A stretch of DNA of 64,000 nucleotides from an uncultured Saprospiraceae bacterium. GTDB taxonomy: Bacteria; Bacteroidota; Bacteroidia; Chitinophagales; Saprospiraceae. Shown here in pieces: positions 19,661 to 53,469 of this stretch; position 1 is the first letter of the stretch; every line of letters begins with the position of its first letter. Made by a program: the position numbers and the translations under genes. Location of the stretch: positions 4,717-68,716 of the forward strand of contig CAZYHJ010000006.1 in assembly GCA_964646645.1 (NCBI GenBank), read 5' to 3'. The notes beneath the pieces were generated by a model. The model did not search any database and was not told the DNA's origin. It worked only from the letters and a program-made list of their open reading frames with translations.

Positions 19661-19726
19661 GGCAAACGGAATGGCTCCGGGAGTTGCATTTACATTAAGG
19701 TAATCTTTTTCGATGATATAAAATGA

Positions 19727-19762
19727 AAAGGCAGCGAATACCTAATGGAATCCGCTGCCTTT
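19727..19762 (-). terminator. terminator downstream of yceI-like gene
   Basis: aaaggcagcg/cgctgccttt 10-bp stem, followed on the minus strand by ttcatttta. Confidence 0.65.
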
Positions 19763-19776
19763 CCGGGGGACAAGCA

Positions 19777-20334
19777 TTAGGATGCTTTGACTAATTGTAT
19801 GTCACAAGAGATCCTGACCTCTTCACTTACCAGCACACCACCTGCTTCCAGGGCGGCATTCCAGTTGAGGTCCCAGTCTCTCCTGTTGATTTTGGCATTG
19901 ACAGTAATACCGGCTTTGTGGTTGCCCCAGGGATCTTTCTGAATGCCACCAAATTCAATGCTGAGTTTGATTTGTTTCTTGATTCCCTTGATGGTGAGGT
20001 CTCCCCAGATTTCATAGCTGCCGTCGTTGTCCACTTTTTCAACCGCAAAATCAGAGGTAAAGTGAATTTGTTTGTGGGTTTCCACATCAAAGAAATCCGC
20101 ACTTCTCAGGTGGTTGTCTCTATTGGCATCACCGGTATCGACTGAAGCAGGGTTGAGCCAAAAATCAATCTCTGCGGACATAAAGTCCTCGTTGGTGGTA
20201 TAGATGCTGGCATCAAATTCCCGGAATACGCCTTTTACATTGGTGATCATCAGGTGTTTCACCTTGAATCCGATTTCACTGTGAGTTGGATCAATGATCC
20301 ATTTTGTTTTTGTCAATTCAGCGGTCTCGCTCAT
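19777..20334 (-). CDS. YceI family polyisoprenoid-binding protein
   Basis: 185 aa: WIIDPTHSEIGFKVKHLMITNVKGVF, RDNHLRSADFFD; typical YceI beta-barrel signature. Confidence 0.85.
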   Translation of the reverse strand: MSETAELTKTKWIIDPTHSEIGFKVKHLMITNVKGVFREFDASIYTTNEDFMSAEIDFWLNPASVDTGDANRDNHLRSADFFDVETHKQIHFTSDFAVEKVDNDGSYEIWGDLTIKGIKKQIKLSIEFGGIQKDPWGNHKAGITVNAKINRRDWDLNWNAALEAGGVLVSEEVRISCDIQLVKAS

Positions 20335-20352
20335 GTTGTGATAAGGTTTAAA

Positions 20353-20597
20353 TGTTTAGTTGTTTAATTGTTTAACTGTTGGTTGGTTTATGGGTTTATA
20401 AGATTAGGAGCTTAGAGGCTTAGGGATTGAAGGTTTATAAGTTTATGGGTTTATAGGTTTATGGGTTTATGAGATTAGAAGATTAGTGGCTTAGGGATTT
20501 TTGAGTTTACTATTGGTGAGTTGATCCGAACCTCAAGTTTATAAGTTTATGTTGGATTTCCTGACTCCTTGCCCTATGCTCTATGCCCTATGCTCCC
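20353..20597. repeat. ~200-nt array of octamer words (gtttatgg/gattagaa/gcttaggg) followed by ctatgc heptamers
   Basis: About 25 consecutive 8-nt units in near-constant register at 20353-20552, then ccctatgctctatgccctatgctc ending 2 nt from the pirin stop. Confidence 0.85.
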
Positions 20598-20598
20598 A

Positions 20599-21474
20599 TC
20601 ACATCGTCATTGGCACATCCATTAAAAGAATTTCAGCATCCGGCGTCAGGGCCTTGACAGAAATCTTTTCTGTATCCCATGTGCCGAGTCCATCACGTTC
20701 AAAGAGATGCTGGCCGTCTATCAGGACTTCGCCTTTAATGATAAATGCATAAACGCCATTTCCTTTTCTTTTGATTTTATAGTCGGTGGTATGGTCCTTG
20801 TCGAAGCGGCCGAGGTGGAACCAGGCATCCTGGTGAATCCATACGCCGGCATCATCGGAAGTGGGGGATAGGATTTGCTGGAATTTATTGTGTCGATCCT
20901 TATGATTTAAAGTGATTTGGTCATACCTGGGCGTTACCCCTTTCTTATTGGGGAAGAGCCAGATTTGAAGAAACTTGACCTGTTGGTCCGCATTCTTATT
21001 GTATTCACTGTGGGTAATGCCTGTTCCGGCACTCATCACCTGGATATCGCCATGGCGGATCACGGAGACATTGCCCATGCTGTCCTTGTGCTCAAGGTCG
21101 CCATCCAGAGGGATGGAGATGATTTCCATATTGTCGTGTGGGTGGGTGCCAAACCCCCGTCCCGGTGCCACGATATCATCATTGAGTACCCGGAGCACAC
21201 CGAAGTGCATCCGCTCAGGATTGTGGTAATTGGCAAAACTAAAGGTGTGCCGGCTGTGCAGCCAACCGTGATTGGCATCCCCGCGGGAAGAGGCACGATG
21301 TAATACGGTATTGTTCATGATTTTTGACGTGGTGTTGGGAATATGGTTAAAACCAAGCGTTTCCAACGGCTGGAGCTCATCGATATCGTTTTTTAGGACA
21401 TTGGCCATGGCCGATGAAGTTACCAGCATGCCCGTTCCCAGGAGGCCTTTGCGGAGGAAATCTTTTCTGTCCAT
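20599..21474 (-). CDS. pirin family protein with N-terminal export-like extension
   Basis: Cupin metal site GFGTHPHDNMEIISIPLDG; N-terminus MDRKDFLRKGLLGTGMLVTSSAMA. Confidence 0.9.
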   Translation of the reverse strand: MDRKDFLRKGLLGTGMLVTSSAMANVLKNDIDELQPLETLGFNHIPNTTSKIMNNTVLHRASSRGDANHGWLHSRHTFSFANYHNPERMHFGVLRVLNDDIVAPGRGFGTHPHDNMEIISIPLDGDLEHKDSMGNVSVIRHGDIQVMSAGTGITHSEYNKNADQQVKFLQIWLFPNKKGVTPRYDQITLNHKDRHNKFQQILSPTSDDAGVWIHQDAWFHLGRFDKDHTTDYKIKRKGNGVYAFIIKGEVLIDGQHLFERDGLGTWDTEKISVKALTPDAEILLMDVPMTM

Positions 21475-21612
21475 CGTTGATTTTGATTTGGTTATAGTTA
21501 AAATAGAATTTCAAACCGGGTTGTTCATTTATAGATCGGAAAAATCATACCGAAAGGCGTATGGGCCGGTTCAAAATGTAAAAATCGCATATTGGCTATA
21601 TATTCGTAATTC

Positions 21613-53220: not shown

Positions 53221-53469
53221 AGCATAGAGCAGAGGGCATAGAGCAAGGGGCAAATAGATTTTGGGAATTAAATTCTTGAAAATTCGCGTGAATTCGCGGC
53301 TGTAACCAAATAGGCAATTCGAAGCGCAGCGAAGATCCCGCAGTGCTGCGAAGCCACTAAGCGGGAAGGCAATAGGCAATAAGCAATAGGCAATAAGCAA
53401 TGGGCAATTCATTGTGTACTACTCACTGCTCACCACTCACCATTCACAACTGACGACTGACGACTCACG
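53214..53469. repeat. composite mosaic element, copy B
   Basis: (gcataga)n at 53214-53250 includes the fdhA stop TAG; 60-nt core at 53314-53373; (gcaataa/gcaatag)n at 53368-53410; (actcac/gactgac)n at 53421-53469. Confidence 0.9.

Follow-up and report, generated by a model that had tools for sequence, protein, structure and literature searches.

An 8-nt repeat array between pirin and yceI in a Saprospiraceae bacterium, one case of a genome-wide and genus-wide class of intergenic repeats

Dispersed short repeats in bacterial spacers

The STRR heptanucleotides of the cyanobacteria Calothrix, Nostoc and Anabaena form several dispersed intergenic word families, and their function is unexplained. 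Long simple-sequence repeats (LSSRs) with units of 5-11 nt, among which heptamers dominate, have been described together with a slippage model (Mrazek, Guo and Shah 2007, as summarised in PMC4679880). Two further families, GGGAATC of Xanthomonas and GGGGA(C/T)T of Nostoc PCC 7120, were characterized by Rehm et al. 2015 (PMC4692102). Close to an ORF, these repeats lie with the 5' side of their G-rich strand towards it; shortly downstream of a stop the coding strand is the G-rich one, and shortly upstream of a start the non-coding strand is (PMC4692102). Direct repeats of the heptamer TAACTGA have been found in marine Beggiatoaceae, some Cyanobacteria, and five Bacteroidetes (MacGregor 2015, PMC4679880). 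A search of the literature on octamer repeats in bacteria, or on repeats in Saprospiraceae, found nothing specific.

The spacer between pirin and yceI in an uncultured Saprospiraceae bacterium holds an array of 8-nt units with the defining features of an LSSR. Like the LSSRs as they are summarised in that review, it consists of short units set head to tail beyond chance, is of a kind that is almost entirely intergenic and present at many loci per genome, and occurs sporadically across lineages. In both cases unit lengths other than multiples of three are excluded from genes, and slippage is the origin proposed. In the summarised survey heptamers dominate, whereas here the unit is of 8 nt, in a genome that uses units of 7 and 8 nt almost exclusively. 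Compared with the summarised LSSRs, the octamers here also stand apart in composition, one strand being nearly free of G.

The likeness to the Xanthomonas and Nostoc repeats lies in their dispersal, in one vocabulary used at many loci, in a strong G/C strand asymmetry, and in the occurrence of inverted pairs. Those repeats, however, are heptamers whose G3-G4 runs fold into quadruplexes in vitro, and the pirin-yceI array has no canonical G4 motif. With TAACTGA the array has in common a TAA within the unit, a forward orientation a few nucleotides before starts, forward stops, and spacers without canonical ribosome-binding sites. It differs in word and unit length, and TAACTGA is one invariant heptamer, mostly in 2-6 copies per set, where the vocabulary here drifts. 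Several word families of tandem short units in the intergenic DNA of one lineage recall the STRRs, which have 7-nt units and other words and belong to another phylum. The unit of 8 nt and the words [A/C]TAANCYY set the array apart from both STRR and TAACTGA repeats, and the neighbouring GCATAGR heptamers use other words as well. Since unit length and words differ and there is no G-quadruplex motif, the array falls outside the TAACTGA and the Xanthomonas/Nostoc families.

The array is not specific to pirin or yceI and belongs to a known, still unexplained class of bacterial microsatellites. The best explanation, to which we assign a probability of roughly 0.6, is a slippage-driven long simple-sequence repeat with an 8-nt unit, of the LSSR/STRR type and part of a lineage-specific genome-wide family, with no role particular to these two genes. 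As a single locus the array matters little. The class bears on the old question of why some bacterial lineages have spacers full of dispersed 7-8-nt repeats with a shared vocabulary. The genus offers a clean case, with two unit lengths, octamers with a G-free strand, a species-specific preferred word, and a polarity in four genomes that matches Xanthomonas and Nostoc. For annotators, a spacer filled with such repeats is not to be taken for a regulatory site, an sRNA, or a CRISPR-like array.

Layout and register of the array

The window, that is, the whole stretch of DNA analysed (64,000 nt), contains pirin and yceI on its minus strand, separated by a spacer of 264 nt (20335-20598). The 8-nt array reported between them in the initial annotation is real, and the sequence of 20344-20550 is as quoted there. 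Its extent had been given from 20353 and reaches down to 20344. The quotation was of the plus strand and is exact, but the relevant reading is that of the minus strand, on which both genes lie. The parts of the locus, from the upstream cistron to the end of the downstream one, are the following.

20599..21474, minus strand: pirin, 291 aa, upstream cistron, from the ORF list; TGA stop at 20599-20601; Pfam Pirin (4e-32) and Pirin_C_2 (3e-25)
20561..20597, minus strand as sense, right after the pirin stop: G-rich heptamers GCATAGG GCATAGA GCATAGG GCAAGGA...; TRF period 7 at 20570-20593
20535..20550, minus strand: two ATAAACTT octamers in register with block A, according to TRF and the TAA phase table
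20495..20534, minus strand: degenerate stretch of 40 nt that keeps the 8-nt register (TAA offsets 57, 89, and 105, all 1 mod 8), read as decayed array
20431..20494, minus strand: octamer block A, 8 units, CTAAGCCA CTAATCTT CTAATCTC ATAAACCC ATAAACCT ATAAACCC ATAAACTT ATAAACCT
20424..20430, minus strand: 7-nt unit TCAATCC, the sole 1-nt register slip (TAA spacing of 15 nt, offsets 161 to 176)
20384..20423, minus strand: octamer block B, 5 units, CTAAGCCT CTAAGCTC CTAATCTT ATAAACCC ATAAACCA
20344..20383, minus strand: degenerate unit ACCAACAG, then block C, 4 units, TTAAACAA TTAAACAA CTAAACAT TTAAACCT
19777..20334, minus strand: yceI, 185 aa, downstream cistron; Pfam YceI (1e-42); homologues align from residue 1
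19730..19764, minus strand: predicted intrinsic terminator hairpin after yceI, then UUUUCAUUUU (U-run); fold of -26.8 kcal/mol, z -5.8

On the minus strand the array reads ATAAACCN / CTAAGCYN / CTAATCTN / TTAAACAN. The octamer words on the transcribed strand can be written [A/C]TAA-N-C-Y-Y and are nearly without G. Nineteen octamer units are in phase. Block A coincides with an in-phase run of NTAANCNN (C6:25147-25210), and its last five units are of the ATAAACYN type. Block B is a duplicate of the start of block A at an offset of 71 nt, with 38/42 positions identical, and block C stops 9 nt short of the yceI ATG. Three period-8 arrays were detected by TRF in the spacer, at 20346-20380, 20433-20485, and 20535-20550.

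Self-identity at a lag of 8 amounts to 0.625 over 20353-20552, against 0.319 +/- 0.032 in shuffles (z 9.4), and to 0.707 over 20353-20500 (z 9.9). Harmonics of the signal are seen at lags 16 and 24. In 1000 dinucleotide shuffles the value was 0.32-0.33, and no shuffle equalled the observed ones. The periodicity analysis that the initial annotation had proposed as a check on the 8-nt period thus gives a significant signal (z 9.4-9.9). The minus-strand TAA triplets keep one phase over most of the spacer: at offsets 49-161 all are 1 mod 8, the degenerate stretch included, and at offsets 176-248 all are 0 mod 8, after a single step of 15 nt. The phase shifts only once, which indicates one 1-nt deletion in about 200 nt; this table agrees with the earlier parse into some 25 octamers with perhaps one 1-nt slip. 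Plain word enrichment was considered and rejected as the source of the signal: GTTTAT, GATTAG, and GCTTAG are not over-represented as single words, and the signal lies in their tandem phasing.

Under the slippage model, such arrays would grow, shrink, and homogenise by gain or loss of whole units, through replication slippage or unequal exchange. Point substitutions arising in one unit would then be copied to neighbouring units. Together these two steps are proposed to explain why the words drift (ATAAAC, CTAAGC, CTAATC, TTAAAC) while the 8-nt register stays.

A genome-wide and genus-wide repeat class

In the initial annotation the array had been presented as a local curiosity; it is instead one case of a class found throughout the genome and the genus. 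The genome (3.46 Mb in 205 contigs) was scanned in 40-nt windows for self-identity of at least 75% at lags 2 to 18. Regions numbered 172 at lag 7 and 63 at lag 8, with the multiples 14 and 16 also represented, and only 0-6 at each of the lags that are not multiples of 7 or 8. More than 90% of the bases in the lag-7 and lag-8 regions are non-coding. TRF, with at least 3 copies required, gave 361 arrays of period 7 (325 intergenic) and 148 of period 8 (140 intergenic). Runs of at least 3 in-phase NTAANCNN units occur 91 times, where 0.17 are expected, and are located in 55 spacers.

The 528 octamer units in these runs make up 73 words. The commonest (CTAACCTC, ATAAACCC, ATAAACTT, CTAATCTC, ATAAACTC, and ATAAACCT) compose most of the pirin-yceI array. 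Positions 2-4 and 6 of the octamer are fixed by the search pattern, and positions 1, 7, and 8 are free; G accounts for 1-2% at these free positions and for 19% at position 5. One strand has at most 5% of G or C in 51/63 octamer regions, against 8/172 heptamer regions. The octamer arrays are a separate compositional class, with one strand almost free of G. Inside single arrays the words shade into each other (ATAAACCC, CTAAACCC, CTAACCTC, CTCACCTC, ATCACTCC) with the register kept, a pattern that is predicted if units are duplicated after substitutions have arisen in them. Matches between loci reach only 77-95% identity over 37-111 nt and so give no sign of recent copying.

Slippage alone does not account for the same few words at about 55 loci or for the words particular to each congener, nor does it account for units of only 7 and 8 nt or for the polarity of the arrays described below. 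A shared vocabulary could be explained if the units were bound by a trans-acting factor each monomer of which covers 7-8 nt, either of ssRNA or ssDNA (a protein of the cold-shock/S1/OB-fold type) or of duplex DNA. The vocabulary of each species would then reflect co-evolution with its factor. The recurrence of the same words at about 55 loci with preferences that change by congener, the restriction to two unit lengths in the genome, and the near exclusion of G at positions 1, 7, and 8 are consistent with this proposal. CspB, according to the review in PMC4679880, binds heptamer repeats with one protein per unit. Set against these points are the free drift of words within arrays, to a total of 73, the 8-bp period, which places successive duplex sites on different faces of the helix, and the fact that no candidate protein can be named. 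A binding-site array is accordingly judged improbable.

Several observations concern the distribution of the two array types among spacers. In co-directional spacers heptamer arrays favour the stop-proximal side, and in those with both array types heptamers come before octamers in 7/8. The density of heptamer arrays is 44 bp per kb in convergent and 14 in divergent spacers. Ten of the 55 array-bearing spacers hold the octamer family in both orientations (for instance C58:8342-8480, C89:2019-2138, and C17:27468-27620). In 9/10 of these the G-poor strand is the minus strand in the left tract and the plus strand in the right tract, so that either transcript could form a long G-rich/C-rich hairpin. 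Another observation concerns the assembly itself. A group of 47 contigs (231 kb, about C111-C190) has a GC content above 56% and GC-rich repeats, the rest being at roughly 46%; these contigs probably do not belong to the bin, although marker genes put its contamination at 0.19.

The nearest named relative, judged by YceI, is a MAG of Candidatus Opimibacter skivensis (84% identity), and the remaining close YceI matches are MAGs of Saprospiraceae or Chitinophagales. The orthologous pirin-yceI spacer was recovered in seven related loci, and the layout is identical in all. G-rich heptamers, mostly GCAAGGR, begin at the pirin stop, their place being taken in one locus (L087) by a G-rich array of GGAGTGAT octamers. 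G-poor octamers with a TAA core extend from there to the yceI ATG, with words of the TAAACAT type closest to it. The words differ among the spacers (ATAAGC, ATCAAC, TTAACC). In-phase units number 6-19 across the seven loci and the window, and the spacer measures 187-445 nt in the six loci that contain both ends. A shared layout with varied words, copy numbers, and lengths indicates that the tract predates these species and turns over fast. The array is present in the relatives, where the initial annotation had asked for it, and the slippage-prone spacer listed there among the candidate roles is supported at the species level, since unit number, length, and words vary among orthologous loci. 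A register that outlasts changes of word is expected where whole units are gained and lost.

Two hairpins were noted in the same spacers. One, with a CCCGC...GCGGG stem, lies between heptamers and octamers in three related loci (L003:1-100, and about 1260-1320 in L085 and L086) and resembles 53314-53373 of the window. L003, L004, L085, and L086 contain a second one, GCTGG...CCAGC, at a point further along the spacer; no exact match to its core exists in the genome.

Beyond this locus, a four-unit pattern was found in 23/24 other species of the genus, with 1-288 matches where controls gave 0-7. The four-unit pattern was present in only 3/16 genomes from other families of the order, and a five-unit pattern in 27/120 other genera of the family, seldom with more than 20 matches. 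The preferred words differ by congener, for example ATAAGC in G017 and TTAACC in G003.

Of the same-species contigs, one from JGI does not differ from the window anywhere in the spacer. Three Logan contigs (L082-L084, from SRR17347192, SRR17347226, and SRR17347195) have an identical YceI and an identical proximal 135-136 nt, and all end inside the array, where the ATAAACCN block begins; de Bruijn assembly of short reads breaks at the array. No polymorphism in unit number was seen over the stretches covered by these four contigs, three of which end in the array.

These comparisons also bear on phase variation, that is, on a contingency locus in which a change of unit number would switch yceI on or off. 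Unit number does differ between species, and in Moraxella SSRs that separate promoter from start codon influence expression, as PMC4679880 summarises. The present array, however, lies neither inside an ORF nor between promoter elements, and it is not obvious how a gain or loss of 8 nt could act as an on/off switch when the leader is about 200 nt long. Such arrays are held by about 230 spacers next to housekeeping-type genes, and the same-species contigs show no variation over the stretches covered. A contingency locus is extremely unlikely.

Polarity, transcript context and possible functions

The orientation of the arrays was compared with the nearest ORFs, using crude gene calls (ATG-initiated ORFs of at least 100 aa). 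In 46/54 TAA-octamer tracts the 3' end of the G-poor strand is nearer an ORF than the 5' end (sign test, 1e-7), with median distances of 50 nt and 164 nt, respectively. Within 50 nt, the 3' end adjoins 14 starts and 15 stops, and the 5' end 1 start and 4 stops. The same polarity was found in all octamer regions (44/52) and in G/C-skewed heptamer regions (47/56 and 56/73). It was replicated in 39 loci from three congeners (43/53, p 6e-6), where the 3' end lies within 50 nt of 15 starts and 13 stops, against 1 and 4 for the 5' end. Since G-rich arrays have open frames with ATG in them, artefacts of ORF calling would oppose this result. The rule is that, at starts and stops alike, the 3' end of the G-poor strand adjoins the nearest ORF, and the polarity reported for Xanthomonas and Nostoc is found here in 46/54, 44/52, and 43/53 tracts. 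The pirin-yceI spacer follows it twice: the G-poor strand of the heptamers, which is the plus strand at 20561..20597, points into the pirin stop, and that of the octamers into the yceI start.

Two simpler rules were examined and discarded. With the G-poor strand taken as sense, the ratios over all distances are 35:28 for tracts facing starts and 32:22 for those facing stops, so that a plain identity of G-poor strand and mRNA sense is not significant genome-wide. A service as backup stop codons after genes does not fit either, since near stops the TAA strand is usually antisense (15 vs 4 within 50 nt).

In the slippage explanation, the orientation of the pirin-yceI array follows this genome-wide polarity, which would be set in one of two ways. 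Selection at gene boundaries may be the cause, such as selection that keeps G-rich sequence with ATG or SD-like motifs away from the region upstream of starts, or the arrays may grow directionally until stopped by a gene. Directional growth was probed through decayed units, that is, through lag-7 and lag-8 signal beyond the array ends, and a weak residual was found on both sides. A bolder proposal takes the arrays as the trace of an active, polar, lineage-tuned process in which templated addition or a trans-acting factor would write or maintain G-poor units of 7 or 8 nt from the centres of spacers towards gene boundaries. It would jointly account for the two unit lengths, the vocabulary shared by about 55 unlinked loci, and the polarity. 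If true, such a process would be common across phyla, the same polarity being reported in Xanthomonas and Nostoc; we regard it as distinctly improbable.

The transcript context of the array was assessed by prediction. An intrinsic terminator scan found no terminator-like site in the spacer, the minus strand included, and a sigma-70 scan no promoter-like site there; outside the spacer, the scans returned one plus-strand terminator-like site inside yceI and two plus-strand promoter-like sites. The Bacteroidota-type TAnnTTTG box is absent from both strands of the spacer. A search of 19700-21600 against Rfam gave no known RNA family, only a chance snoRNA match (E 0.67) outside the spacer. The hairpin at 19730-19764 is the probable end of the pirin-yceI transcript; it was missed by the consensus terminator scan, probably because of the scan's loop limit of 3-8 nt. 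From the strong terminator after yceI, and from the lack of a terminator or a TAnnTTTG box in the spacer, we infer a bicistronic pirin-yceI mRNA, of which the array is probably the intercistronic part.

As RNA, the array is predicted to be without structure. The 166 nt of sense RNA before the yceI ATG fold at -1.3 kcal/mol, and shuffles equal this value, so that G-poverty alone explains the lack of structure. The structure-free RNA linker suggested in the initial annotation holds in the physical sense (-1.3 kcal/mol over 166 nt) and weakens as a function, since shuffles behave alike and the G-poor strand is not consistently sense. Pairing between heptamers and octamers was rejected, the fold of the full spacer being no better than that of shuffles (z 0.08). 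Stops occur in all three frames of the tract, and no ORF runs through the array. Upstream of yceI, 199 nt are without ATG, GTG, or TTG, a length reached by only five of 2134 ORFs (median 20). The G-rich strand was examined for G-quadruplex motifs with at least four runs of G3+ and loops of 1-7 nt between them. No such motif, and none with G2 runs, is present in 20335-20598, and genome-wide only 3/63 octamer regions have one.

At this locus the array would thus form an unstructured leader that carries stops in three frames, lacks start codons, and leaves 9 nt between its end and the yceI AUG. It could have been selected as such, as a landing pad that focuses ribosomes on this AUG and halts those arriving from upstream. 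The phylum does not use Shine-Dalgarno pairing. The distance of 9 nt, the stops in three frames, the absence of predicted structure, and the rare NTG-free run of 199 nt all agree with this idea, and within 50 nt upstream of starts the G-poor strand of TAA-octamer tracts is sense in a ratio of 14:1 (15:1 in the congeners). The orientation is also identical in all orthologous spacers, but these share ancestry, so that their agreement is one observation and not seven. TAACTGA repeats likewise lie just upstream of starts in Beggiatoaceae and Flexibacter (PMC4679880). About as many tracts within 50 nt (15 vs 14), however, adjoin stops on the opposite strand, a position in which such a function is ruled out; counted over all distances, the G-poor strand is the sense strand at only 35:28, and shuffled sequence is as unstructured as the real one. 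A selected RNA element of this kind is unlikely, and any benefit to translation is putative.

The composition of the array suggests a further role. Over 151 nt it has 44 C and 4 G (C/G = 11) with 25 YC dimers, and it looks like the RNA of a rut site, which is untranslated, unstructured, rich in C, and poor in G over some 80 nt or more, although this is a likeness of predicted properties and composition only. A Rho-loading pad would end untranslated transcription towards the gene boundary and act as an insulator or attenuator between pirin and yceI. The lack of predicted structure and of an intrinsic terminator in the spacer accords with it, and rho is present in the genome. Under the polarity rule, moreover, RNA entering any ORF from a spacer is G-poor, which fits a suppression of antisense or read-through transcription. 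Composition is nevertheless the sole basis of this proposal, and a rut site 9 nt before the start would terminate transcription inside yceI, yet the spacer holds no promoter box for yceI. Rho loading is highly unlikely as the reason for the array. The rho gene itself (G000:C86:5502-5723, L234) lies in an open frame of 613 aa, far longer than E. coli Rho. N-terminal insertions are known in the Rho of Bacteroidota, and the 613-aa frame would fit these.
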